This document shows, one piece after another, positions 16,206 to 58,062 of a DNA stretch of 58,062 bases. Source of the DNA: a virus; IMG/VR virus record IMGVR_UViG_3300045988_053840; one strand, 5' to 3'. The position numbers and the translations under genes were made by a program. Numbering within the stretch: the stretch's first letter is position 1; each line of letters starts with the position of its first letter. The notes below the pieces were generated by a model. It made no database searches, was not told the origin of the DNA, and saw nothing but the letters and a program-made list of their open reading frames with translations.

Positions 16206-16234
16206 TTGACATTTCTATTTATATGTATTACAAT
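16206..16234 (+). promoter_or_regulatory. Early promoter P1 (TTGACA-17-TACAAT), member of the 8-copy family
   Basis: TTGACA at 16206-16211, TACAAT at 16229-16234. The spacer atttctatttatatgtat is conserved in the other copies. Confidence 0.7.
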
Positions 16235-24702: not shown

Positions 24703-24707
24703 AATAT

Positions 24708-24779
24708 AGCCCTTTCGCCAAGTGGTAAGGCACGAGATTTTGCTTCTCGCATCCGTTGGTTCGAATCCAACAAGGGCTG
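24708..24779 (+). tRNA. tRNA-Gln (anticodon TTG), no encoded CCA
   Basis: Manual fold: acceptor agccctt/aagggct, D arm gcc-aagtggtaa-ggc, anticodon arm cgaga-ttTTGct-tctcg, T arm gttgg-ttcgaat-ccaac. The D loop matches bacterial tRNA-Gln. Confidence 0.8.
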
Positions 24780-24845
24780 TTTATAAGATATTAAATCTTA
24801 TAAGAAACTAAAAACACTAAAAACATTTAAGAAAGGAATTAAAAC

Positions 24846-25851: not shown

Positions 25852-28116
25852 ATGGCTTTATCATTTGCAAGACCAAAAAACAATGATAAGAGTATAGTTC
25901 AGAAGTCTAAAACAATAACTAATAGAACAAGTATAAGGGGCGGCGGTGGTAATAACATTGCCGCTCAAATACAGTCTATAGTGGCTATTGCTAACCAAAA
26001 ATTGGCAATACATAATGATGACTATATTCTTATTAGAGAACCTGACCAGTTATATGAGTATATGAAAGAAATGAAACAGGTCGGGGAGGGTGCGTTAGAT
26101 ACAGAAGCAACAGGATTAAATCCGTTACTTGTAGATATAGTAGGTGGTTGTATCTATACTCCAGGACAGAAAGCGGCTTATATTCCGATTAATCATAAAT
26201 CTTATATAACAGGTGTAAGAACTAAAGACCAGTTAGATGAACAGACAGTTTCTAAGATTATGAAAGATTTCTATAAGGATATCAGATGGATTTTTCATAA
26301 TGCTAAGTATGATATTCGTGTATGTAGAAAAACATTAGGAATTGATATTCCACCTTACTGGGATACAATGTTAGCGGCTTATTGTATAGATGAAGAAGAA
26401 AGTCACAGATTGAAAGACTTACATCTTAAATACTGCAATAGCAAAGATACTGAATCACTCACATTTGATTCTTTATTCAAAGGAGTTACATTTGACATTA
26501 TTCCAATATCAACTGGATATTTATATGCCGCAGGTGATGCTATAAAGACATATGAGTTATATGAGTATCAAAAAACAATATTAAATAGAAGAGTATTATC
26601 TGGTCCTTATAATGTATTTTGGAATATAGAAATGCCACTTATACCAGTTGTAGCGGATATGGAAGATAGAGGGGTATGTTTGGATTTTGATGTATGTAAA
26701 AATCTACATGAAAAATATCATAAGATAAGAGAAGAAAGACAAAAGCAAGCTGATGAAGCAATAGCAATGTATCAGAATGAAATTGATACTTATAAAATGA
26801 AAAATCCTAATAATAAGCTATCAGACCCCATATCATTATCAAGCCCCACTCAGCTTGCAATATTGTTCTATGATATTTTAGGATTAGAAAGTCCAGATAA
26901 GAAAGCACCAAGAGGAACAGGTGAAGATATTTTAAAACATTTTGCACAGGGCAAACATAAAGATTTATGTGAAGCTATCTTAGGAATGAGAAATGTTGAT
27001 AAGCTGTTAAGTACTTATATTGATAAGATGCCTGAAATTGCTCTTGAAGATGGACGAGTACATGCAAGTTATAATCAGTATGGTGCTAAGACAGGACGAT
27101 TCAGTTCACAAGACCCTAACCTACAGAATATTCCTTCACATAATAAGGAGATTAGACAGATGTTTAAGGCTCAAGACGGCTATGTGCTTATAGGTTCAGA
27201 TTTTAGTCAGCAAGAGCCAATGGTTACAGCTCATTTATCAGCCGATAAGAAGATGCAGGAAGCCTTTATAAATGGAAAAGATATCTATGCTACAATAGCG
27301 GCACTTGCTTTCCATAAGCCTTATGAAGAATGTAAAGAGTTCAGACCTGATGGAACAGTCAATCCAGCAGGTAAGGAAAGAAGAAGTCAAGCTAAAAGCA
27401 TTGTATTAGGTATCTTATATGGACGACAGATTCCTTCAATCGCAGAACAGCTTGGGGTATCTACCAAGGAAGCTCAAGCCATATATGATAAGGTTATAGC
27501 TTCATTTCCAGCCCTTGGAAAGTTCATTGAAGATTCACAGAACATGGCAAGAACTGAAGGCTATGTGACTACAGCTTGGGGCAGGAGAAGACATTTAAAG
27601 GATATGCAGTTAGAACCTTATGAATTTAGTTATAGCGGAAAAGTTACTAACTTTGACCCTCTAGCGTTTGGAAGTGAAGTATCTACAGAAGTTCCAAAAA
27701 AAGTAAAGGATAACTATACTAAACAGCTTCAAAAGGCTTTTGGTTGGAAAAAGAAAAATGATATAATTCAAAGTGCTTTAGCTCAAGGAATTAAGATTAA
27801 GGATAATGGTGGATATATAGCACAGGCAGAAAGACAATGTGTTAATGCAAGAGTACAAGGTTCTGCCGCAGATATAACGAAGCTGGTAATGATTGCAATA
27901 AACAATGATGAGAGAATGAAAGAGCTTGATTTTCATTTACTCATTCAGGTGCATGATGAGGTTATAGGTGAATGTCCTATTGAAAATGCAAAGGAAGCAG
28001 GAGAAAGACTTTCTTACTTAATGAGAACAGCCCCAACTCATTTGATTAGACTTCCATTTAAGTGTGATGTAGATTTTACAAATAATTGGTATGGTGAAGA
28101 AGTGGAGATTGAATAA
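25852..28116 (+). CDS. polA: Family A DNA polymerase with 3'-5' exonuclease domain
   Basis: Exo motif ALDTEATGL. Pol motifs DFSQQEP, RRSQAKSIVLGILYG and QVHDEV. Confidence 0.9.
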   Translation: MALSFARPKNNDKSIVQKSKTITNRTSIRGGGGNNIAAQIQSIVAIANQKLAIHNDDYILIREPDQLYEYMKEMKQVGEGALDTEATGLNPLLVDIVGGCIYTPGQKAAYIPINHKSYITGVRTKDQLDEQTVSKIMKDFYKDIRWIFHNAKYDIRVCRKTLGIDIPPYWDTMLAAYCIDEEESHRLKDLHLKYCNSKDTESLTFDSLFKGVTFDIIPISTGYLYAAGDAIKTYELYEYQKTILNRRVLSGPYNVFWNIEMPLIPVVADMEDRGVCLDFDVCKNLHEKYHKIREERQKQADEAIAMYQNEIDTYKMKNPNNKLSDPISLSSPTQLAILFYDILGLESPDKKAPRGTGEDILKHFAQGKHKDLCEAILGMRNVDKLLSTYIDKMPEIALEDGRVHASYNQYGAKTGRFSSQDPNLQNIPSHNKEIRQMFKAQDGYVLIGSDFSQQEPMVTAHLSADKKMQEAFINGKDIYATIAALAFHKPYEECKEFRPDGTVNPAGKERRSQAKSIVLGILYGRQIPSIAEQLGVSTKEAQAIYDKVIASFPALGKFIEDSQNMARTEGYVTTAWGRRRHLKDMQLEPYEFSYSGKVTNFDPLAFGSEVSTEVPKKVKDNYTKQLQKAFGWKKKNDIIQSALAQGIKIKDNGGYIAQAERQCVNARVQGSAADITKLVMIAINNDERMKELDFHLLIQVHDEVIGECPIENAKEAGERLSYLMRTAPTHLIRLPFKCDVDFTNNWYGEEVEIE

Positions 28117-29273
28117 TGGAATTGTATTTAGCTGGTGTGGATAGAAAACATCTAATTAACTCTAAAAATGAAAGATTGGATGATACATTATATTCCAATG
28201 CTTTATTTAGCTATCTTCAAAAGAATGATATAAATTCCTATATATATAATAGGAATAACTTATATGATATTACGACTGATTTATTGAATAATAAAGGATA
28301 TTTTTATAAAGCTATGAGATTATATTTAGTAGGAGCTGATAAATTTGGAAAGGAAGAAGTGAAACAGTATATGAAACTTTATTTAGCTGGGATGGAAGAA
28401 TCTTGTGTAGATAAGATTGATTGTAATGCTTTATTTAGTTATATTGACCAAGGCAAATTACAATTTGATAAACTTAAAGATTTTATTAAACCTGGAAAAT
28501 TATTTATTGATTCAGGAGCTTTTAGTGCATGGACAAAAGGAGCAAAAATAAATGTTAAGGAATATATCAACTGGTTGAATGAAAGGTCTGAAGATATTCA
28601 TTTATGTGGACAGGTAGATGTGATTCCAGGAGATAGAGTATTTGGAGCTACTCCTAAACAGGTTAGAGAAGCGGCAGAAGCTACATGGGATAATTACCTT
28701 TTTATGAGGAAACGATTGAAAAATCCAAAAGCTCTTCTATATACTTATCATGTAGGTGAACCTATTGAATTTTTAAAGCGTGCTTTAGAGTGGACAGATG
28801 AATCAGAGGAATATATTCCTTATATTGCTTTAGGTGGTATGGTTGGAAAACCGGCTAAAATAAGGGATGTGTTCCTTGAAAAATGTTTTAGGACAATTCG
28901 TGAATCTAATAATCCTAATATTAAAGTTCATGCATTTGGCATGACAGATTTTGAATTATTAGAAAAATATCCTATTTATTCCGCAGATAGCACCAGCTGG
29001 ATTATGGTTGGTGCTATGGGTAATGTTATGAGTGATTTTGGAAATATAGCAGTATCTAATAATCAAATCCATGATAAGAATCATTATAGCCATCTTCCTA
29101 AAAAGGCTATCGAAGATTTTAATAAGATAATTGATGAATTTGGATTCACTTTAGATGAATTAGCTGAACATAGGGATAATCGTATATTATTTAATGCATT
29201 ATATATGCAGAAAAAGATTCGAGAATTAAATACAAAAGACAGAAAATTTTCTTATAGAAAAAAACTTTTCTAA
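28116..29273 (+). CDS. dpdA: DpdA-like DNA guanine transglycosylase (TGT superfamily)
   Basis: The LFIDSGAFSAW motif and a TIM-barrel-like pattern, adjacent to queC/D/E and folE. The N-terminus carries three in-frame M-x-LYL-A/V-G starts (28116, 28314, 28371). Confidence 0.6.
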   Translation: MELYLAGVDRKHLINSKNERLDDTLYSNALFSYLQKNDINSYIYNRNNLYDITTDLLNNKGYFYKAMRLYLVGADKFGKEEVKQYMKLYLAGMEESCVDKIDCNALFSYIDQGKLQFDKLKDFIKPGKLFIDSGAFSAWTKGAKINVKEYINWLNERSEDIHLCGQVDVIPGDRVFGATPKQVREAAEATWDNYLFMRKRLKNPKALLYTYHVGEPIEFLKRALEWTDESEEYIPYIALGGMVGKPAKIRDVFLEKCFRTIRESNNPNIKVHAFGMTDFELLEKYPIYSADSTSWIMVGAMGNVMSDFGNIAVSNNQIHDKNHYSHLPKKAIEDFNKIIDEFGFTLDELAEHRDNRILFNALYMQKKIRELNTKDRKFSYRKKLF

Positions 29274-31176: not shown

Positions 31177-31286
31177 TGAGCTGTAAATTTGAGAATAAAA
31201 AAGATAAATTATTATATTGGGGCAGTTTGATTTTAAGAATACTTGCTCTTACATTATCAATGTATTTATATAGGAGGTTTGCTTAA
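31176..31286 (+). CDS. Possible 36-aa hydrophobic peptide between queC and queD
   Basis: ATG overlaps the queC stop (TAATG). MSCKFENKKDKLLYWGSLILRILALTLSMYLYRRFA; its stop lies 1 nt before the queD ATG. Under 60 aa, so absent from the track. Confidence 0.3.
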   Translation: MSCKFENKKDKLLYWGSLILRILALTLSMYLYRRFA

Positions 31287-31287
31287 T

Positions 31288-31638
31288 ATGTATTATGTAT
31301 CAAAAAGAATGGAAATAGCTGGGGCTCATCAGTTAAAATTACCTTATGAAAGTAAGTGTTCTAATCTTCATGGGCATAACTGGATAATAACTGTTCATTG
31401 CAAAGGTAAGGTTCTCACGGATTATGGAATGTTGGTAGATTTCAAACATATCAAAGAGGCAGTTCAAGAGAAATTAGACCACAAGTATATCAATGAGGTC
31501 ATAGACTTTAATCCTACAGCTGAAAACATGGCTAAATGGATATGTGATGAGGTTGATAAGATGTGTCCTATCCCTACCATTTGTTATAAGGTTGAAGTGC
31601 AGGAAAGTGAAGGAAACATAGCTGTATATGAAATTTGA
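31288..31638 (+). CDS. queD: 6-carboxy-5,6,7,8-tetrahydropterin synthase
   Basis: ORF track 31243..31638; ATG 31288 follows AGGAGG. EIAGAHQL...CSNLHGHNW motif. Confidence 0.85.
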   Translation: MYYVSKRMEIAGAHQLKLPYESKCSNLHGHNWIITVHCKGKVLTDYGMLVDFKHIKEAVQEKLDHKYINEVIDFNPTAENMAKWICDEVDKMCPIPTICYKVEVQESEGNIAVYEI

Positions 31639-34624: not shown

Positions 34625-34806
34625 AGGTATATGAACTACTGGATAAAATACCTACTCATTATCAAGCAATAATAAAATCTAGTAATAACAAATTTCTTAC
34701 AGCAGGAAGAATATTTGAGTTAGAAAGAGCAAAAATTTATTTGGATTCAGAGGTTAAAGAAATAAATATATATGATAACAAATTAATAATAAAAATAGAA
34801 AGGTGA
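34621..34806 (+). CDS. Hypothetical protein
   Basis: 61-aa ORF after GGAGGTGA. Confidence 0.45.
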   Translation: MKVYELLDKIPTHYQAIIKSSNNKFLTAGRIFELERAKIYLDSEVKEINIYDNKLIIKIER

Positions 34807-35612
34807 TTGATAAGGTGAGTAGAAGATTATTAAATCTAATCAATAACAATAAACCACAGCTCCCCGCAAATAAGAAATTTTTATCTGATGTTATGAGCTG
34901 TATTGAAAGAATGGAACAAGAAGGGAGAAGAACTGGAAGTAATTATTATAAGCCTTCTTCCTTGCATTGTATGAGAAATATGTATTTCACAAGAACAAAA
35001 GCACCACAAGACCCAGAAGTGGTAGAATATAATTCAACAGGAATGGCAGATACAGGAACTGCAAGGCATGAAGCATTACAAAATGCATTGTTGAATTTAC
35101 AGAAAATGGGATACGATTGGAAATATCTTGATGTAGCTGAGTATGTTAAACAGAAGCAGAAGTTCGGAAAATGTAAGTCTTTGATTGTAAAAGGCACACA
35201 GGGAGCAGAAACACACCTTATAGATACTGCATTGAATCTATCTTTTAGATGTGACGGCATTATAAGGAGGATATCTACAAATGAAGATTATTTATGGGAG
35301 TTCAAGAATGTAGTATCATTCAAGTATAATCAGTTGAATGACCATTGTTTAGAACAGCATCATAATCAAGTAATCTGCTATTGTACTGTACTTGATTTAG
35401 ATAAGGCTTTCGTGACATATGAGAATAGAGATATATGCACACTTGAAGTTCCTGAAGTATTTGAAGTCACACAGGATATGAAAAACTGGCTTGTAAACTA
35501 TATAAGTGAATGTGAAGGTTATGTGGAAAGAATGATAGCACCGCCACGAACAGAAGATACAAAGAATTGTAAATATTGTCCTTATAAAGGAATATGCAGA
35601 AAGGTAGGTTAA
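34803..35612 (+). CDS. PD-(D/E)XK exonuclease with Cas4-like Fe-S cysteine cluster
   Basis: N-terminal Cys (SSLHCMRN), a D...EFK nuclease core and C-terminal CKYCPYKGIC (C-x2-C-x5-C). Confidence 0.6.
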   Translation: MIDKVSRRLLNLINNNKPQLPANKKFLSDVMSCIERMEQEGRRTGSNYYKPSSLHCMRNMYFTRTKAPQDPEVVEYNSTGMADTGTARHEALQNALLNLQKMGYDWKYLDVAEYVKQKQKFGKCKSLIVKGTQGAETHLIDTALNLSFRCDGIIRRISTNEDYLWEFKNVVSFKYNQLNDHCLEQHHNQVICYCTVLDLDKAFVTYENRDICTLEVPEVFEVTQDMKNWLVNYISECEGYVERMIAPPRTEDTKNCKYCPYKGICRKVG

Positions 35613-40621: not shown

Positions 40622-40953
40622 TGGCAACTAGAGATTATTCAGATAGACAGGAACAGCATATTGCAAGAGTAACAGGTGGTAAAGTACAGAGCAATTCCGG
40701 TGGAACAAAGTTCGGAGGTGGTGATGTTCATACAGATATGTTCTTTATAGAAGCTAAAACACCAACAAAGGAACAAACCTCATTTACTATTAAAAAAGAA
40801 TGGATAACTAAGATGAGAGAACAAGCATATGAACAAGGAAAGGAAGAATCTGTATTAGCTTTTAGATTTGACCCAAACACAGATAATGACTTGTATGTAT
40901 TAAGTCAAAGACAGTTTTTGGAATATTTAAGATTTAAGGAGCAGGAGGTATGA
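40621..40953 (+). CDS. PD-(D/E)XK-like nuclease (Hjc/RecU-like, putative)
   Basis: GGDVHTDMFFIEAKT looks like a D...E-x-K core. Confidence 0.35.
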   Translation: MATRDYSDRQEQHIARVTGGKVQSNSGGTKFGGGDVHTDMFFIEAKTPTKEQTSFTIKKEWITKMREQAYEQGKEESVLAFRFDPNTDNDLYVLSQRQFLEYLRFKEQEV

Positions 40954-41147
40954 TATGTCCATTATGTAATGGAAAATTAAAAGTAGTAGATACAAGGAAT
41001 ATCAAAAAAGATAATTCTATAATAAGGCGAAAACGGTGTTTAAACTGTGGAGCTTTATATTACACTAAAGAAACAGAGATTGATTATGCAAGTATTCAAA
41101 AAGAATGGCTTAAAGCCGTAAATGAAGGGAGATTAAAGAATGATTAA
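40950..41147 (+). CDS. NrdR-like zinc-ribbon protein lacking the ATP-cone
   Basis: MICPLCNGKLKVVDTRNIKKDNSIIRRKRCLNCGALYYTKE parallels the NrdR N-terminus. The whole protein is only 65 aa. Confidence 0.55.
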   Translation: MICPLCNGKLKVVDTRNIKKDNSIIRRKRCLNCGALYYTKETEIDYASIQKEWLKAVNEGRLKND

Positions 41148-45525: not shown

Positions 45526-45883
45526 ATTTCCAAGAAGATGGAATGCTATTACTTGCATTAATTATCTACAGCGTAAGATTATCTTAAATTCTATAGCTTA
45601 TTATAAATACGATAAATCTTTTGTATCTGATAGTTATTTTGATGAAATGTCACATCAGCTTGTTCAGATGCAAAAGGATTTTGCTGGGAATCTTGAAGCC
45701 GATACAGAATATGGATATATGATGTATGATTTTGATGGTTCGACAGGCTTTGATTTGCCGGATAGATTATTTCCACATGATAAAGATTATCTTACACAGA
45801 TGACAGAATATTATATATGCAGACAGGAGAAATCTAAACCAGTCAAGAAAATCACTAAAACAGTAAGGAGGAAATTGTTTTAA
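45518..45883 (+). CDS. Hypothetical protein with a motif resembling NAD-ligase domain Ia
   Basis: NSIAYYKYDKSFVSDSYFDEMSHQLVQMQ compared with the LigA N-terminal pattern YY..D.P.ISD.EYD.L...L. Confidence 0.3.
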   Translation: MIRFPRRWNAITCINYLQRKIILNSIAYYKYDKSFVSDSYFDEMSHQLVQMQKDFAGNLEADTEYGYMMYDFDGSTGFDLPDRLFPHDKDYLTQMTEYYICRQEKSKPVKKITKTVRRKLF

Positions 45884-46827
45884 TGGAACTTGTAGATTTA
45901 ATGAAAGCTATATCTGAAAACAGTGTACCGCATTATTTAATTCTTTTTGGTGAAGAGCAGGCAATTCTTGACATTTATATTCAGCATATAGCACAGAATT
46001 ATAAGATTGTATATTGTGATACTGTAGCTTATGCTCTTTCACAGGTTGGAAAAAAGAGTATTGATAAGTCCAACAAAGTTTACATTGTGAATGAAGATAA
46101 TGCTTATACTAAGGCAGAGGAAAACTGGAAGAATGTAAAACAGACTTTCAATAAAAGCAAGCATATTTTACTACTTAAATATCATAGTATAGATAAGAGA
46201 GGGAAATTCTATACACAGAATAAAGGAAATGCGGTAGAATTTACACATTTATCAGAAGATGTACTAATTAACTATATTCAGCAGAAACTGCCAGCTTTAA
46301 GCGAGAAAAACGCTTCCAAGCTAATAACATGGTGTAATTACGATTATGGCAGAATCTTAATGGAAGTAGATAAGATAGACCATTATCATTCAGTCATGGA
46401 CGCTTTAACAACAGACAGTTGCTTTACTCAATTAAATGAACAAGGCTTGTTCTATAAGGAAATAGGAGATATAACATTTGAATTAACTAATGCAGTATTA
46501 GGTGGATATTCAGAAACAGCTATACAGAAACTTGATGAAGCTAAAAGAAAAGGAGAACCAGCTATGATGATATCCAGCATATTATATAATGGTTTTAGAA
46601 ATCTATTAGCTTATCAAGGTCTTGGCAGTAATAAGCAGAACGCAATGGAGAGAACAGGGATGAGTAAAGGGGAATTATATGGATGTAGTAAGAATGTCGG
46701 CGGTTATAATATAACAGAAGTTAAAAGAAACATGCTTAAATGCCAAGAAGTAGAAGCTGGAATTAAAATGGGTACAATAGATGAAGAAATAGCACTTGAA
46801 TATATTGTTTTATCCTGTCTGAAATAG
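45883..46827 (+). CDS. Clamp-loader delta-like subunit
   Basis: 314 aa. HYLILFGEEQAILDIY N-terminus typical of HolA-like proteins; it follows the other loader genes. Confidence 0.5.
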   Translation: MELVDLMKAISENSVPHYLILFGEEQAILDIYIQHIAQNYKIVYCDTVAYALSQVGKKSIDKSNKVYIVNEDNAYTKAEENWKNVKQTFNKSKHILLLKYHSIDKRGKFYTQNKGNAVEFTHLSEDVLINYIQQKLPALSEKNASKLITWCNYDYGRILMEVDKIDHYHSVMDALTTDSCFTQLNEQGLFYKEIGDITFELTNAVLGGYSETAIQKLDEAKRKGEPAMMISSILYNGFRNLLAYQGLGSNKQNAMERTGMSKGELYGCSKNVGGYNITEVKRNMLKCQEVEAGIKMGTIDEEIALEYIVLSCLK

Positions 46828-46840
46828 ACAGGATTTTTTA
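46812..46840 (+). terminator. Rho-independent terminator (stop codon inside stem-loop)
   Basis: atcctgtct (46812-46820) pairs with agacaggat (46826-46834), followed by ttttt. Confidence 0.75.
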
Positions 46841-46860
46841 TATAAATTTTAAAAATTTGC

Positions 46861-46889
46861 TTGACATTTCTATATATATGTATTACAAT
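46861..46889 (+). promoter_or_regulatory. Early promoter P8 (TTGACA-17-TACAAT)
   Basis: TTGACA at 46861-46866, TACAAT at 46884-46889. Confidence 0.7.
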
Positions 46890-46895
46890 ATAATC

Positions 46896-47063
46896 AAGTT
46901 AAGAAAGACAGGAAAATAAGCAAGTAACATTGAAAGATGACCTCTACTTTACAGAAAGCGAAAGTTCATACATAAATAGTCAGAAGATATGAACCATAAC
47001 AGCCGACACTGAATAATTCAATTCTTTCTTAACTTACTATTATAAAACAAAGAGGAAAATAAT
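46896..47063 (+). promoter_or_regulatory. Long (about 165 nt) structured 5' leader or small RNA in front of the sigma-factor operon
   Basis: A 13-bp perfect helix, aagttaagaaaga (46896-46908) with tctttcttaactt (47023-47035), encloses about 114 nt with an inner hairpin (46964-46970 with 46988-46994). There is no plausible ORF inside. Confidence 0.45.
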
Positions 47064-47360
47064 ATGAATGCTGTTAGATTAACAAATAGTATTATAGGGA
47101 AGGTATTGATTGAATCAGCTAATGAATCTTATGAAAAAAGAATTGATAAAATGTTATCAAATTCATTTGATAATGTAATAAAAGCCATAAAAACATATAA
47201 AGCAACAAGATATAATGAATCAGATGGATTTTTTGCAACTGATGCTATTAAGTATTTTGATTCTAAGTTAGAAAAAGAACATGAAAAAGAATGGTCTGAA
47301 ATTGAAGACATCTGTGATGATAACTGGTATAAAGTAGTAGAAAAGTTTTATAAGTGGTAA
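47064..47360 (+). CDS. Hypothetical protein
   Basis: 98-aa ORF after AGAGGAAAA. Confidence 0.5.
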   Translation: MNAVRLTNSIIGKVLIESANESYEKRIDKMLSNSFDNVIKAIKTYKATRYNESDGFFATDAIKYFDSKLEKEHEKEWSEIEDICDDNWYKVVEKFYKW

Positions 47361-47362
47361 AA

Positions 47363-47392
47363 ACAAAGTGAAGTGATAACACTTAAAACACT
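47363..47392 (+). promoter_or_regulatory. Conserved 30-nt motif copy 2 (acaaagtgaagtgataacacttaaaacact)
   Basis: 27/30 identical to 24673-24702. It starts 2 nt after the upstream stop and lies directly before the sigma-factor RBS. Confidence 0.5.
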
Positions 47393-47413
47393 TTATAAAG
47401 GAGGATAATCTAA

Positions 47414-47923
47414 ATGACAAAAGAACAGGAACAGCTTGTAACAGATAATCATAATTTAATATATTATATTATAAATAATAAATATGGATTATCTACTGAA
47501 GAATATTATGATGTGTGTGCTATAGGTTTATGCAAGGCGACAATTACATATGACAGTTCAAAAGATGTAAAGTTTGCTACATATGCAGGAATATGTATAG
47601 AAAATGAAATCAAGCTAGAATTAAAAAAACAGAAAAAATATTCTGCTTCTGTGTATTCACTAGATAGGACATTCAATAATACATCAGATGGAACTGGGGA
47701 GATTTCATATATGGAAAATATAACAACAGGTTTATCTGCTTATGATGAGATACTTCCATATCAGTTAGATAAAGTATTAAATGCTAAGGAATATAAGCTC
47801 GTAGCTTTGACATTACAAGGTTATACACAGGTAGAAATCGGAAATATTATAGGAATATCACAGACTATGGTGAGCATGATGCTTTCTAAAATTAAACAGA
47901 AATTATTAAAAGGAGGAAAGTAA
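47414..47923 (+). CDS. Sigma-70-family RNA polymerase sigma factor (group 3 / sporulation-sigma-like)
   Basis: Region 2 YDVCAIGLCKATITYDSSKDVKFATYAGICIENEIK. Region 4 HTH LQGYTQVEIGNIIGISQTMVSMMLSKIKQKL. Confidence 0.8.
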   Translation: MTKEQEQLVTDNHNLIYYIINNKYGLSTEEYYDVCAIGLCKATITYDSSKDVKFATYAGICIENEIKLELKKQKKYSASVYSLDRTFNNTSDGTGEISYMENITTGLSAYDEILPYQLDKVLNAKEYKLVALTLQGYTQVEIGNIIGISQTMVSMMLSKIKQKLLKGGK

Positions 47924-48285
47924 TGTTAATATCAAAAGGAGATGTATATTGGGTGGATATGTCTAAGGTGTGGTCAGAATCGGACATACATGCACAGAAA
48001 GGCATGAGACCCTGTGTTATTATTAGCAATAACAAGAATAATGATAACAATTCAAGAGTTATTATAGTACCTTTGACAACTAAGGAGGATGATTTGCCAC
48101 AGCACACAATGATATGGATACACAATATTAAAAACTATGTTGTTCCAGAATGTATAACATCTATACCTAAAAACCTTTTAGGTAAAAAATATGGCTGGAT
48201 TAGTAGGAGAGCCTTTAAGTATGTTATTAAGGCGGTCAAGATTCAGTTGGGATTATGGGAAGGAGATAAGAATGAACGATATTAA
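47923..48285 (+). CDS. mazF: MazF/PemK-family endoribonuclease toxin-like protein
   Basis: KGDVYWVDMS...KGMRPCVIISNN...SRVIIVPLTTKEDDLPQHT matches the PemK/MazF signature. Its ATG overlaps the sigma stop (TAATG). Confidence 0.7.
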   Translation: MLISKGDVYWVDMSKVWSESDIHAQKGMRPCVIISNNKNNDNNSRVIIVPLTTKEDDLPQHTMIWIHNIKNYVVPECITSIPKNLLGKKYGWISRRAFKYVIKAVKIQLGLWEGDKNERY

Positions 48286-48421
48286 ACAGACAACTTGCAA
48301 AAGATGTGGTAGAAAGCTAAGAACAGAAGAAGCTATTAATAGAGGTATGGGAATAACATGCTGGAGAAAATGGCAAAAAGAAAACAATCATAAAAAATTA
48401 TGGGAGGATAAAGATGAGTAA
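48272..48421 (+). CDS. 49-aa basic Cys4 peptide with DUF6011-like motif
   Basis: ORF track 48191..48421; ATG 48272 follows AAGGAGATAAGA. CKRCGRKLRTEEAINRGMGITCWRK. It overlaps the mazF-like 3' end by 14 nt. Confidence 0.45.
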   Translation: MNDIKQTTCKRCGRKLRTEEAINRGMGITCWRKWQKENNHKKLWEDKDE

Positions 48422-49112
48422 TAAACAGCTTGATTTAACATTTGTTAAAATGGTTAATGAAACATATGACAGGCAGAAACAGATATACAAGAAAGAGTGC
48501 CGGGAGTATGCAAAAATGTGCATATTAACAATAATAACATTATTAGCTTGTCTGTATTTAATAACAAGAATATTATATAATCCCACAACAGATTACACAG
48601 TTGAATCACAAGAAAGTCAGCAGGCAGAATATACATACAATCCATATATAGAGAATCTTACACATGAAGAGATTAATATAGATTCTAATTATACAGACAA
48701 TATGGAATATTTTGTGCGATGTGTAACGGCAGAAGCTGGCAATCAGGATGATTATGGGAAGAGACTTGTTATAGATGTTATATTAAATAGTTGTGATAAG
48801 TATAATATGACTACAACAGATGTTATTAATGCAGATGGGCGATTTGAAGTAGTAAGTAATAATAGCATTAATACAGTCGAACCTGATTTACATGTTTATG
48901 ATTTAATTACAGAGGAGATAACTACAAGAACCAACAGTGATATATTATATTTTAGAACAAATAAATATCATTCTTTTGGAACACCTGTTATGAAACATCA
49001 GGCACATTATTTCAGTATGAGTGTATTTAATTTAGATGAGCAACAGACGGATACTTTAGTTATAATATTAATAATATTTTGTTTTATATTAGCTTTTGCA
49101 AGTGCATTATAA
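48414..49112 (+). CDS. SleB-like cell-wall hydrolase flanked by N- and C-terminal TM helices
   Basis: VRCVTAEAGNQDDYGKRLVIDVILNSCDKYNMTTTDVINADGRFEVV resembles Hydrolase_2 (SleB). TM segments ILTIITLLACLYLITRIL and LVIILIIFCFILAFASAL. Confidence 0.5.
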   Translation: MSNKQLDLTFVKMVNETYDRQKQIYKKECREYAKMCILTIITLLACLYLITRILYNPTTDYTVESQESQQAEYTYNPYIENLTHEEINIDSNYTDNMEYFVRCVTAEAGNQDDYGKRLVIDVILNSCDKYNMTTTDVINADGRFEVVSNNSINTVEPDLHVYDLITEEITTRTNSDILYFRTNKYHSFGTPVMKHQAHYFSMSVFNLDEQQTDTLVIILIIFCFILAFASAL

Positions 49113-49131
49113 CATGAAAGGAGATAATTAT

Positions 49132-49305
49132 ATGAAAAGTGAAGATGAAATATTAACAGATTTTATTCATAAGCACTTTATAGAAGAGGCTTTATATGAT
49201 AATTATATGAGAAAGCTAATGGCAGACACAGTTGAATTTAAGATATATTTATTTAAGTGTAGACTTATAGAAGCCGCTAAAACAATGTTAAAAAGGAGGA
49301 ATTAG
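49132..49305 (+). CDS. Hypothetical protein
   Basis: ORF track 49096..49305; ATG 49132 follows AAAGGAGA. Confidence 0.45.
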   Translation: MKSEDEILTDFIHKHFIEEALYDNYMRKLMADTVEFKIYLFKCRLIEAAKTMLKRRN

Positions 49306-49307
49306 TT

Positions 49308-49736
49308 ATGTTAAATAAAGAGTATTATAGAGATTTGCTTGTGGAATTTGCTATTTCTAATGATAAAGTGGCTTTGAATGCTGAAGGAGTACCTATTGCT
49401 TGTAATGATACATGCTGTGCTAAATGTGGGTTTAATGATATAAATGTAGACTGTGATGAAATGAGAAAAAGATGGGCGAATAAGGAATATACTGAACCAA
49501 GAATACATTGGGAAGATGTACCAGTAGATACTCCAGTATATATATATAAACCAAATATGCCCGGACATTTTGCAAGTTATGATGCTCAATCAAATTTGAT
49601 AAAAGTCTTTGATTATGGACGAACATCCTTCACAATTAGCAATAAACACGATATAGAACGTGAGGTATCAGGATATCTTCCATCATATGTATCATTAGCA
49701 AGAGAAGAAGATATAAAGAAGTATTATCATAGATAA
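49308..49736 (+). CDS. Hypothetical protein
   Basis: 142-aa ORF after AAAGGAGG. Confidence 0.5.
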   Translation: MLNKEYYRDLLVEFAISNDKVALNAEGVPIACNDTCCAKCGFNDINVDCDEMRKRWANKEYTEPRIHWEDVPVDTPVYIYKPNMPGHFASYDAQSNLIKVFDYGRTSFTISNKHDIEREVSGYLPSYVSLAREEDIKKYYHR

Positions 49737-49764
49737 TATAATAAGCATAATATATTAATCAATA

Positions 49765-49801
49765 AACACACTATTCAGAAATGGATAGTGTGTTGTTTTT
49801 A
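49765..49801 (+). terminator. Rho-independent terminator ending the early/middle region
   Basis: aacacactat (49765-49774) pairs with atagtgtgtt (49785-49794), followed by gttttt. Confidence 0.7.
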
Positions 49802-49838
49802 TATTAATAATATGTTAATATAACATTAATAAAAAACT

Positions 49839-50078
49839 ATGAAAGGCGGGATAAATATAGACACTAAATCATTAATGTTTAAATTACAAAAAGCATTAAA
49901 AACAAAAGGAATAATACTATGTATTAATACAAATCAATTCTATTCTACAGAGCAAGATAGATATATAACAATGTATACTGTAGTAAGAAACAAGAAACAA
50001 TTAATAAGAACAGCTAGTCAGATACAAGTGATAAATAAATTACAGGAAATATGGGAAGAGGTGAAGAATAATGACTAA
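49839..50078 (+). CDS. Hypothetical protein
   Basis: 79-aa ORF with a weak RBS, first gene of the packaging unit. Confidence 0.35.
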   Translation: MKGGINIDTKSLMFKLQKALKTKGIILCINTNQFYSTEQDRYITMYTVVRNKKQLIRTASQIQVINKLQEIWEEVKNND

Positions 50079-55303: not shown

Positions 55304-55708
55304 TTACCAAGCTCTATCACCATTAAGAGCCACTCCAATAGATTCTGCATGTTTATCCGGAGCTGTTACAACATTATGATTATCACACACTCTTCTTCCT
55401 ATGTATCTTTCTGTAACACAAGCTATGGAAGTTAAATGCCTGCCGTCAGTAGTTTCAAATTCCAACTCAAATTTATAAAGATACTGTTTTTCTGGTGACA
55501 TATTTATTATCTTAATTAGTTTCGCTTTCTTATTTTCCAATGGTACTCCATATATTCTATGCCCTATATCAGTTATTATGTAATAATTACCTATTTCATA
55601 TTTAGGCTTTGAAGTATTCAACCATATGAACTGGTCAAGTAATTTCTTTCCTTTAGTATCCTCCTTTTCCATTAATTTCTGCAAAGTGTTTAATTCTGAT
55701 TTTGTCAT
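55304..55708 (-). CDS. Hypothetical protein: the only minus-strand gene, inserted in the head operon
   Basis: ORF track 55304..55744. ATG at 55708 (MTKSELNTLQKL...) lies 7 nt after AGGAGG on the minus strand. The gene has its own promoter and terminator. Confidence 0.6.
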   Translation of the reverse strand: MTKSELNTLQKLMEKEDTKGKKLLDQFIWLNTSKPKYEIGNYYIITDIGHRIYGVPLENKKAKLIKIINMSPEKQYLYKFELEFETTDGRHLTSIACVTERYIGRRVCDNHNVVTAPDKHAESIGVALNGDRAW

Positions 55709-55756
55709 ATAAAGACCTCCTATAATATGTATTAGATTACTCATATCCTATAATTT

Positions 55757-55785
55757 ATTATAACATATTGTAATACATAAATCAA
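55757..55785 (-). promoter_or_regulatory. Leftward promoter (TTGATT-17-TGtTATAAT) for the minus-strand gene
   Basis: On the minus strand: TTGATT (55785-55780), 17-nt spacer containing tatgtattacaata, TATAAT (55762-55757). Confidence 0.55.
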
Positions 55786-55789
55786 TAGA

Positions 55790-56034
55790 AGTTATCCACA
55801 ACTTCCAAAAAAGTTATCAACAAAAATAAAAGTTATTCACATAGTTATCAACATATTAACATAGTTATTAACATAAAATTGTTGATAACTTTTATTTTTG
55901 ATATAATTGTGGATAACTATGTTAGTAACTTGTTGATAACTATGTGGATAAGTCAAAAATGTGTATAACTTTTAAAAAATTGTTAATAACTTTGTTGATA
56001 ACTATTTACATTGTTGATAACTTTGTGTATAATA
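55790..56034. repeat. Array of 15 DnaA-box-like 11-mers (consensus AGTTATCMACA; 5 rightward, 10 leftward)
   Basis: Rightward cores at 55792, 55814, 55833, 55845, 55865. Leftward cores at 55880, 55908, 55920, 55931, 55943, 55960, 55981, 55993, 56012, 56024. Three are perfect TTATCCACA. Confidence 0.8.
56005..56033 (+). promoter_or_regulatory. Rightward promoter (TTTACA-17-TATAAT) for scaffold/capsid genes, overlapped by DnaA-box-like repeats
   Basis: TTTACA at 56005-56010, TATAAT at 56028-56033. Boxes at 56012-56020 and 56024-56032 lie in the spacer and -10. Confidence 0.5.
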
Positions 56035-56104
56035 CAAAATGTAAATAATCCATATTCCAGAAAGTGGAATTAAAAAAATATTTTAGATTAAAGGAGACAA
56101 CGAT

Positions 56105-56757: not shown

Positions 56758-57885
56758 ATGCCAAGAATTACATCATTAGAAGTATTACTTGACCCACAGG
56801 GTAAGATGCTTTTATCAGAAGCATACGATGGAGTTATTGAGAATGTGCAGAAAGCTACAATCTCAGGACAGTTAAAGAACACAGATTTATCTGGAGACCC
56901 AACAGCAGGCACAGTAGAAGCGAAGAGATTCGTTAATGCTAAGTCTAACGCCTATGGTACAGCCAGAGGAAAGGGTAAGGGTGAGCTTGTAAAAGGTAAG
57001 CCAGTAACAATTCCTATTGATACAGACCGAGAGTTTATTGAAGAAGTTGAACAGAAGGATGTATCCCTTTTAGGTGTTGATGGACTTATTACAAGAAGAA
57101 GTGCTAACCATGCAATGCAGATGGCTAATGAGCTTGATAGAGCTTTCTTTGCAGAGTGTGTTGCTAGTGGTACACAGTTTACACCATCTACAGAAGCAAC
57201 AGCAATCCAGGATATTATTGAGGAAGCTATTGTAACACTTGAAACACTCAAGAATGATTATATTGATGGTATTCCAAGAAATATGTTATCTGTAGAAGTT
57301 ACACCAGCAGTATATAGCAAGATGAGAAAGTACCTTGATGAGGTTGTTCATAACGCTAATGTTGACACAGCGGCTGAAACATTTGACAGATTTCATGGTG
57401 TTAGATTTATTTCAACAATCAACATGCCAGCAGGTTGTGACTTTATCGTTCAGGTTGATGGTTCTGTAGCACAGCCAGTAAGAAGTCAGGCATATTCAGC
57501 AGAAAAGATTCCAATGTCTGAGGCTTATGCTATTGAGTTATTCTTCTACTATGGTACTAAGGCAGTCACACCAGAAACAATCCTCTTCTACTCTGCTACA
57601 GGTACAATGACTGTTATTTCTAAGGCAGGCACAGAAACAGGTAAGACAGCTCTTACAGTTTCTCCAACTAAGACAGGCACTAACACATATTCTTATAAGA
57701 CAGCAGAATCCGTTGATGTTCCTAAGTTAGGGGCAACAGTAGAAGGATATACAGCTTGGAATGGTACAGATGAAATCACAGCCACAACAAACAATGATAT
57801 TGTTGTAGTTGAGCTTACAGCAACAGATTCTAAGGTTGTAAGAGCTGGTAAGACTAAAGTAACATCCAATGCGGATAGTGAATAA
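56758..57885 (+). CDS. Major capsid protein with C-terminal Ig-like domain
   Basis: 375 aa after the scaffold gene, with a strong RBS. The C-terminal about 90 aa is Thr/Val/Gly-rich and beta-like (TMTVISKAGTETGKTALTVSPTKTG...). Confidence 0.75.
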   Translation: MPRITSLEVLLDPQGKMLLSEAYDGVIENVQKATISGQLKNTDLSGDPTAGTVEAKRFVNAKSNAYGTARGKGKGELVKGKPVTIPIDTDREFIEEVEQKDVSLLGVDGLITRRSANHAMQMANELDRAFFAECVASGTQFTPSTEATAIQDIIEEAIVTLETLKNDYIDGIPRNMLSVEVTPAVYSKMRKYLDEVVHNANVDTAAETFDRFHGVRFISTINMPAGCDFIVQVDGSVAQPVRSQAYSAEKIPMSEAYAIELFFYYGTKAVTPETILFYSATGTMTVISKAGTETGKTALTVSPTKTGTNTYSYKTAESVDVPKLGATVEGYTAWNGTDEITATTNNDIVVVELTATDSKVVRAGKTKVTSNADSE

Positions 57886-57900: not shown

Positions 57901-58062
57901 ATGAGATTACAGCTAAATAGTGGTGTAATCTTGAATACCGACAATGAATCTTTAATTCAGCAGTACCTGAAATATGGTGCTGTTGAATATAAAGAGCCAG
58001 TGGAGGCTATTGTTGAAGAAGCACCTAAAACAGAAGATGTTGTTGAAGAAGCACCTAAAACA
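57901..58062 (+). CDS. 5' part of small ORF that runs off the window end and resumes at nt 60 after removing the overlap (63 aa in the circular genome)
   Basis: ATG 57901 follows AAGGAGG. There is no stop before 58062; the frame continues to TAG at 87-89. Confidence 0.55.
   Translation, partial: MRLQLNSGVILNTDNESLIQQYLKYGAVEYKEPVEAIVEEAPKTEDVVEEAPKT
58004..58062. repeat. Terminal direct repeat copy 2 (identical to 1..59)
   Basis: Direct read. Confidence 0.9.

Follow-up and report, generated by a model that had tools for sequence, protein, structure and literature searches.

What purpose does a toxin gene serve in a phage when no antitoxin gene accompanies it? This question is raised by a 58,062-nucleotide (nt) stretch of viral DNA (IMG/VR record IMGVR_UViG_3300045988_053840; the whole stretch is referred to here as the window), in which a gene for a sigma-70-family factor (sigma) overlaps one for a MazF/PemK-type endoribonuclease (MazF), which in turn overlaps one for a 49-amino-acid (aa) peptide of the DUF6011 family. 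Toxins of toxin-antitoxin (TA) systems are usually discussed as bacterial defense or addiction genes. The original prediction for this locus had offered two possibilities: that the phage uses an unguarded ribonuclease (RNase) during infection, or that the toxin is neutralized by one of the two neighboring gene products. The first is still the best reading, with no antitoxin found. We favor, with moderate confidence, an early, solitary, and active MazF RNase that would act on cellular RNA to aid takeover of the cell or the switch from early to late expression, without an antitoxin.

MazF and sigma gene identities

The assignment of the 120-aa open reading frame (ORF) to MazF/PemK was initially made from the motifs KGDVYWVDMS, GMRPCVIISNN, and VIIVPLTTK, all three of which are present in the translation, and profile and structural comparisons agree with it. 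The protein matched PemK_toxin (PF02452) with an E-value of 2.5e-15 (57 bits versus a cutoff of 23.1), residues 5-108 aligning with positions 2-108 of the 109 in the model, and phrog_1936, annotated as 'MazF-like growth inhibitor', with an E-value of 3.2e-19 over residues 3-118. An AlphaFold2 model (predicted local distance difference test score, pLDDT, of 82.4) was compared with known structures by Foldseek; the top matches were 4hke, 1ne8, and 4mdx (template modeling scores of 0.77-0.79, probability 1.00), and the superposition partners were Bacillus anthracis MoxT, Bacillus subtilis MazF, and Staphylococcus aureus MazF (0.76-0.79). As modeled, the protein has the SH3-like barrel of the MazF fold. 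Loss of the catalytic residues, named at the outset as grounds for abandoning the assignment, was not seen: Arg29 and Thr52 are kept and occupy the alignment positions of the catalytic Arg and Thr in S. aureus MazF, whose roles we take to be those of the established MazF structures (R25 of B. subtilis or R29 of Escherichia coli, and T48 or T52, respectively). Arg29 does not vary among ten clade members, and Thr52 is nearly invariant (at least 90%). The ratio of nonsynonymous to synonymous substitution rates (dN/dS) was 0.11 against the closest relative, synonymous sites are saturated while the protein is still 63-72% identical, and the ORF is full length in 12 of the 12 homologue clusters found. 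By these comparisons, the mazF gene appears intact and under selective maintenance.

The upstream gene had been read as a sigma-70-family member with regions 2 and 4, which the profile searches bear out. Its product scored above the cutoff for Sigma70_r2 (E-value 4.6e-6; 26.8 bits versus 24) and just below it for Sigma70_r4 (E-value 4.3e-4; 20.2 bits versus 24.1) in Pfam; it also matched the full-length NCBIfam model TIGR02937 over residues 5-166 (52.2 versus a cutoff of 42.9) and phrog_351, 'RNA polymerase sigma factor', with an E-value of 3.9e-23. Thus, on profile evidence, it is assigned to the two-domain sigma-70 family (group 3/4-like). The nearest matches were the sporulation factors SigK/E/F/G, all sub-threshold (the best at 63 bits versus equivalog cutoffs of 252-457), which suggests a resemblance rather than membership in any of those equivalogs. 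One further small ORF of the window has weak matches to sigma region 4 and GerE.

The sigma stop codon overlaps the mazF start codon as first described, the ORF map and the sequence agreeing that TAA and ATG share one base in the TAATG at 47921-47925. The two genes had also been called translationally coupled. The overlap allows coupling but does not require it, because mazF has a strong Shine-Dalgarno sequence of its own (AAAGGAGGAAAG), which sits inside the 3′ end of the sigma gene and ends 4 nt before the ATG, with its GGAGG core ending 7 nt before.

Search for an antitoxin

No MazE, PemI, AbrB, ChpS, or ribbon-helix-helix (RHH) antitoxin was found by Pfam and NCBIfam models among 40 small plus-strand ORFs of the whole genome, and the ORFs adjoining the toxin had no antitoxin family match either. 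The window was rescanned with NCBIfam because the Pfam scan, MazE_antitoxin (PF04014) included, missed a control even at E ≤ 0.05: the AbrB-type MazE (RKIGNSKGVIIP motif) encoded upstream in a distant viral mazF locus, L028. In contrast, NCBIfam MazE/ChpS/PemI models recognized the controls, which are antitoxins encoded ahead of mazF in distant viral loci, at 1e-4 to 2e-3 in L028 and at 3e-5 in L023. Pfam-only antitoxin screens of phage loci can thus yield false negatives. With the NCBIfam controls detected, the early impression that the locus has no canonical antitoxin stands. Unlike the window, L023 and L028 retain a canonical antitoxin.

Other forms of antitoxin were also sought. No overlapping or antisense ORF at mazF was conserved across the relatives described below, no Rfam match was found near mazF, and no type III-like tandem repeats were detected at 46000-49799, the sole arrays being at 49800-49832 and 49985-50000. 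The 98-aa ORF that opens the unit was considered as a candidate, since it has an acidic, Trp-containing C-terminus, and was rejected, since unrelated ORFs occupy its position even in the closest relative (L011); ORFs upstream of mazF are in general not conserved among relatives. Overall, the locus is not a type II TA module, as no cognate antitoxin was found and mazF is the third of seven genes in a 2.9-kb unit transcribed from a repeated early promoter; nor is it a type III module, as tandem RNA repeats are absent beside the toxin. The type II mazEF/pemIK modules (including kis-kid) share with it the toxin fold, the catalytic Arg/Thr pair, and the size of the toxin; however, they have an upstream MazE/PemI/AbrB/RHH antitoxin in a two-gene autoregulated module, neither of which is seen here, where the toxin gene lies in a seven-gene early operon of an apparently virulent phage.

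Organization of the early transcription unit

The sigma and mazF genes belong to a transcription unit spanning 46861→49794, with seven genes between promoter and terminator (Table 1). The promoter is one of eight near-identical plus-strand copies of TTGACA-N11-ATGTATTACAAT, versus 0.06 expected by chance, located at 16206, 18212, 24407, 29280, 34089, 39186, 42952, and 46861, and thus confined to 16.2-46.9 kb. Most of the copies examined stand after a terminator hairpin, and together these elements split the 16-50 kb replication region into units; no copy lies in the late block, which extends from 49.8 kb across the junction as far as about 13 kb. The early promoter is also conserved in related phages, including ahead of their variable slot (see below). 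Since the promoter of the unit is this repeat, sigma and mazF would be placed in the early/middle class read by the host polymerase.

Just downstream of the unit lies the conserved element TTAATAATATGTTAATATAACATTAAT, with which an 11-nt repeat at 49800-49832 coincides. The element is common to the window, L005, L011, L035, and L037, which form one subgroup and all carry a sigma gene (five of five). Other relatives have at this position a sigma-A-like TTTACA-17-TATAAT, with or without a sigma gene. The element is a candidate promoter or target of the phage sigma, and the co-occurrence, which is phylogenetically non-independent, weakly suggests that sigma may serve as the late-operon factor in this subgroup.

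Table 1. Features of the transcription unit that carries the sigma and mazF genes, and of its flanks
Feature	Position	Strand	Remarks
Terminator-like hairpin and T-run	46812..46834	+	Begins inside the final codons of the clamp-loader gene (45883..46827); terminates the early unit before it
Host sigma-A/sigma-70-type promoter, TTGACA-N17-TACAAT	46861..46889	+	11/12 match; eighth and last early-promoter copy
98-aa ORF	47064..47360	+	No family match; first gene of the variable cassette; unrelated ORFs there in close relatives
Phage sigma-70-family factor, 169 aa	47414..47923	+	Regions 2 and 4 only
Solitary MazF/PemK-type endoribonuclease gene, 120 aa	47923..48285	+	Arg29 and Thr52 conserved; predicted from sequence and fold
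DUF6011 basic zinc-ribbon-like peptide, 49 aa	48272..48421	+	Backbone gene
Membrane-anchored SleB-like cell-wall hydrolase	48414..49112	+	Hydrolase_2, sub-threshold; backbone gene, same operon
Function-unassigned operon gene, 69 aa	49096..49305	+	ORF call
Function-unassigned operon gene, 142 aa	49308..49736	+	ORF call
Strong terminator-like hairpin (13 bp stem) and T-run	49765..49794	+	Ends the sigma-mazF unit; conserved in relatives
Conserved element TTAATAATATGTTAATATAACATTAAT, 27 nt	49804..49830	+	Ahead of the late (packaging) operon; not sigma-A-like; unique in the window

A variable slot in related phages

Local hidden Markov models for sigma, MazF, and DUF6011 were run on about 140 loci. 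About 30 related contigs share a backbone of 72-95% DNA identity that consists of the clamp loader, terminator, early promoter, a variable slot, DUF6011, hydrolase, terS, and terL. In the window, the slot extends over roughly 46.92-48.27 kb. Its contents in this and other phages were found to be: (i) sigma followed by mazF in the window, UViG_076013, L005/L006, L007, L016, L046, and L055, to which L015 adds a gene for a 59-aa membrane peptide between the two; (ii) sigma alone, with DUF6011 directly after it, in L035, L036, and L037; (iii) mazF without a sigma gene in the 4 kb upstream in L012, L013, and L014, and mazF with an upstream region that is not assessable in L008, where the contig ends 0.76 kb upstream; and (iv) neither gene in L115-L128, L132, L135, and L139. 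Sigma without mazF was also detected in about 65 more distant loci. The phages with mazF and no sigma gene in the covered region include IMGVR_UViG_3300045988_087341, _080971, and _105453. Since four combinations of sigma and mazF occur on a shared backbone, the two genes have been gained and lost independently and sigma is not the keeper of MazF; both appear to be swappable cargo.

Small hydrophobic peptides also occur in this slot. Peptides of 58-79 aa with one or two transmembrane segments are encoded directly 5′ of mazF in four relatives (L008:573-749, L012:3731-3970, L014:3772-3990, and L015:3811-3990), and a different 62-aa membrane peptide (L115:3708-3896) fills the slot in mazF-less relatives.

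Proposed role of MazF during infection

The favored reading can be laid out as follows. Host RNA polymerase would read the sigma-mazF unit early, from its host-type promoter, after which the phage sigma probably redirects the polymerase to the late (packaging/structural) operon just downstream. Meanwhile, MazF would cut cellular RNA, either host messenger RNA (mRNA) or a specific site in a transfer RNA (tRNA) or ribosomal RNA (rRNA), and this cleavage would help to silence the host or make the early-to-late switch more abrupt. An antitoxin would be superfluous because the infected cell is doomed in any case. A conserved, catalytically intact-looking MazF in a lytic phage that lacks an antidote points to a reverse use of a TA toxin, as a phage weapon.

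A comparable case is RegB of phage T4. This sequence-specific RNase, encoded by a virulent phage, has a TA-toxin fold and is expressed from an early promoter; no antitoxin against it is known, and it accelerates the transition from early to later expression (PMC3014915, PMC1702504). RegB differs from the window protein in its fold, which is RelE/YoeB-like rather than that of MazF, and in its target, which is GGAG in early ribosome-binding sites, whereas the early and late translation-initiation regions of the window have no distinguishing motif. A more specific version of the favored reading is possible, though we advance it only tentatively: virulent Firmicute phages may have domesticated a TA toxin as an antitoxin-free, RegB-like host-takeover RNase expressed from an early promoter alongside the phage sigma factor, such that host and early messages are destroyed as the late switch begins. 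In a variant of this version, the zinc-binding DUF6011 peptide would moonlight as an inhibitor.

Several results weigh against a takeover RNase. Sense-strand 4-6-mers were examined with a Markov correction for depletion of a cleavage motif from phage transcripts, a check proposed at the outset, and the known MazF motifs gave no such signal. Published MazF motifs, among them ACA, UAC, and UACAU, are as frequent as expected on the phage sense strand, none of the non-palindromic 4-6-mers is purged in the phage, the known motifs are if anything commoner in late genes, and late genes of mazF-carrying relatives show no motif loss compared with those of mazF-less relatives. The strong depletions are all of palindromes, which points to restriction avoidance. 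Thus, the phage does not visibly protect its own transcripts, which counts against broad mRNA shredding; a narrow target (a tRNA or rRNA site) or tolerated self-damage must therefore be assumed. In addition, mazF is dispensable in close relatives, and its benefit would therefore be conditional. For most relatives about 4 kb per side was covered, so the genomes called 'sigma-less' could carry sigma farther away, and MazF could have an inhibitor in the form of a non-canonical protein or a host-encoded factor. Finally, the analysis shows which genes are present, how the operon is laid out, that no antitoxin is detectable, and that sigma and mazF come and go separately, whereas the RNase activity of MazF is inferred, as are the targets, the timing, and the advantage for the phage.

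Alternative explanations

The location of mazF bears on a first alternative, in which MazF serves for attack or protection in conflicts between phages or with defense systems rather than for general shut-off. It would act by superinfection exclusion, by cleavage of competitor or defense transcripts, or by interference with a host MazEF system for abortive infection. The gene occupies a hypervariable slot and is present in some near-identical backbones and absent from others, a distribution typical of conflict genes; the genome is heavily invested in defense evasion, with purged restriction sites and DpdA/QueD enzymes; and host MazF is a documented anti-phage factor that is countered by phages (PMC10769878). 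However, PADLOC defense models gave no match for MazF, the retained catalytic residues argue against a pure decoy, and a virulent phage profits less from exclusion than a prophage. We regard this explanation as unlikely, though more probable than the other alternatives.

The second alternative assigns to DUF6011 the part of a non-canonical antitoxin, encoded after the toxin gene, that binds MazF and restrains it until needed. The peptide matched DUF6011 (PF19474) with an E-value of 9.8e-10 (38.2 bits versus a cutoff of 26.6); it had been described as a Cys4 peptide, and actually has three Cys residues (C9, C12, and C30) and an invariant His40. Its gene stands just downstream of mazF in every clade locus, over about a dozen contigs with MazF identities down to 35%; it mostly follows directly, and in the window its ORF overlaps the mazF 3′ end by 14 nt. 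Furthermore, the peptide has a Trp-containing acidic tail, KKLWEDKDE, and such a tail is loosely like MazE C-termini. The distribution of DUF6011 argues otherwise. The peptide is 84-86% identical in at least 15 related loci without mazF, it directly follows sigma where mazF is missing (L035-L037), and in L008 a gene of 131 aa separates it from mazF. Across the same loci it is far more conserved than MazF (65-88% versus 35-72%), and the two do not co-vary. Even the conserved junction has another explanation: the DUF6011 ribosome-binding site and ATG lie within the last mazF codons, so that the conserved C-terminal tail of MazF, LWEGDKNERY, is dual-coded with them. This dual coding also led us to reject the tail as a cis-acting inhibitor. 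By its behavior, DUF6011 appears to be a backbone gene rather than a dedicated MazF antitoxin, and it is for this reason that it always accompanies mazF in the clade. The suggestion that the downstream peptide neutralizes MazF accordingly lost ground, and we consider it improbable.

In a third alternative, sigma and MazF form a functional pair, either with sigma as the antitoxin or with MazF needed for sigma-dependent late expression, and coupling sets their ratio. Besides the TAATG overlap, sigma leads directly into mazF in seven distinct contigs whose sigma identities reach as low as 36%. In addition, Agathobacter phage NatCom_13861 encodes a weakly sigma-like 161-aa protein (L001:2509-2994; RpoH 0.0035, Sig70 0.012) just 5′ of an unrelated MazF-like gene, whose product is 29% identical to the window MazF; this locus may represent another, independent instance of a regulator gene located ahead of mazF. 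Against such a pair stand the slots in which either gene occurs without the other, together with a near-minimal comparison in which the MazF proteins of L014 and L015 are one residue apart and the difference between the loci is the sigma gene. Moreover, L015 has the membrane peptide gene between sigma and mazF, mazF has its own strong Shine-Dalgarno sequence, and MazF-like genes of GenBank phages adjoin polymerases, methylases, and similar genes rather than sigma factors. The proposal that sigma neutralizes the toxin is difficult to uphold on this record, and a functional pair of either kind seems very improbable. Beside these comparisons, sigma and DUF6011 were observed in frame as one 218-aa ORF in L037 (L037:4001-4657), whereas the near-identical contig L036 has separate overlapping ORFs (L036:4001-4653); the L037 ORF may be genuine, in which case it hints that sigma and DUF6011 are functionally linked, or it may result from a 1-nt assembly error.

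Lastly, mazF could be a leftover from a captured mazEF module, decaying or neutral and with no present function, which we find scarcely credible: the gene is missing from close relatives without obvious replacement, but its low dN/dS, its full-length ORF in all homologue clusters, and its conserved Arg29 and Thr52 argue against decay.

Relation to known systems

Solitary phage MazF-like genes were found by tblastn in 45 GenBank phage records, including Lactobacillus, Clostridium, Faecalibacterium, Thomasclavelia, and Lachnospiraceae phages, where they mostly lie among replication genes with no antitoxin annotated. These genes are an already catalogued family, PHROG 1936/35650, with members in Lactobacillus phages ATCCB and Lpa804, Clostridium phage c-st, Faecalibacterium phage Lagaffe, and the Lachnospiraceae NatCom phages. 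The catalogued genes resemble the window gene in being phage-encoded MazF/PemK genes, usually with no annotated antitoxin adjacent, among early or replication genes. They differ in that their products have <35% identity to the window MazF and that their neighbors are a polymerase, methyltransferase, or deoxyribosyltransferase gene instead of sigma and DUF6011. In the literature, we found no study testing the function of a phage orphan MazF.

The original prediction had also held that no described sigma-MazF operon is known. This is only partly so: MazF is co-transcribed with an alternative sigma factor in the mazEF-rsbUVW-sigB operons described in Staphylococcus and Listeria (PMC4885055, PMC5308263). 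However, these operons (Staphylococcus, Listeria, Bacillus) include MazE, have MazF upstream of sigma with the rsb genes between, and belong to a chromosomal stress regulon, whereas the window operon is of a phage and has the reverse order. Sporulation-like sigma factors have been described in Bacillus and gut Firmicute phages (PMC9429907, PMC10294663). Like the window sigma, they are small and have SigF/G/E/K as best matches, with the window equivalog scores far below cutoffs, and the two papers mention no linked toxin. The window MazF is thus a member of the MazF family and of the phage orphan-MazF class, and not part of a new sigma-toxin system. The locus provides an extra, better-dissected example of a gene class that is catalogued but functionally unstudied. 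Moreover, within this phage family mazF and sigma are each present in some near-isogenic natural variants and absent from others, all on one backbone, which would make testing easier once a host is found.

Genome and lifestyle of the phage

The window has a G+C content of 33% and a 59-bp direct terminal overlap (1-59 = 58004-58062), and it is therefore a circularly assembled, complete phage genome of ~58.0 kb. A junction-crossing gene, probably near 57885 to 434, was cut in two by the linearization. All window genes are on the plus strand. The phage encodes its own replisome (DnaB, a DnaC-like loader, primase, PolA, sliding clamp, clamp-loader subunits, single-stranded DNA-binding protein, and a UvsX-like recombinase). 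Enzymes resembling DpdA and QueD are encoded as well, and the expected genes for packaging, structural proteins, and lysis are present. Neither an integrase nor a repressor was found among the scanned window proteins. GenBank phages gave no DNA match to the window, its close relatives being from human-gut metagenomes and IMG/VR. No relative of MazF with >35% identity was found in 185,579 bacterial and archaeal species (one genome each), the best being 33% in Lachnospiraceae, and on this result a prophage copy and an antitoxin-bearing cellular ancestor of MazF at >35% identity were set aside. This gut phage looks virulent, because its genes are on one strand, it has its own replisome, no integrase or repressor was found, and the species genomes hold no >35% relative. 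Its host is probably a spore-forming Firmicute.

Several further features of the genome were observed. Palindromic restriction sites are strongly avoided over the whole window: GATC occurs 0 times (161 expected), as does GCAGC/GCTGC (43+21 expected), and CTGCAG and GTTAAC are likewise absent. Further palindromes are below expectation, namely GGCC (1 versus 35), GCGC (2 versus 24), ACGT (5 versus 28), and AAGCTT (8 versus 33). The DpdA-like transglycosylase (28116..29273) and the QueD-like enzyme (31243..31638) suggest 7-deazaguanine modification of the phage DNA. The early region also encodes a Cas4-domain exonuclease homologue and an NrdR-like zinc-ribbon peptide (34803..35612 and 40950..41147). 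Phage tRNAs can stand in for nuclease-sensitive host tRNAs; a single tRNA-Gln (UUG) is encoded at 24707-24780, between two early units, and has no obvious link to MazF. About 12 DnaA-box-like repeats (TGTGGATAA / TGTTGATAA) are clustered on both strands within ~240 bp at 55792-56032, inside a 669-nt gap (55436-56104) just 5′ of the late genes for 210-aa and 375-aa proteins. This cluster, which could be an origin or a regulatory array, is adjoined by a 146-aa minus-strand ORF (55304..55744).

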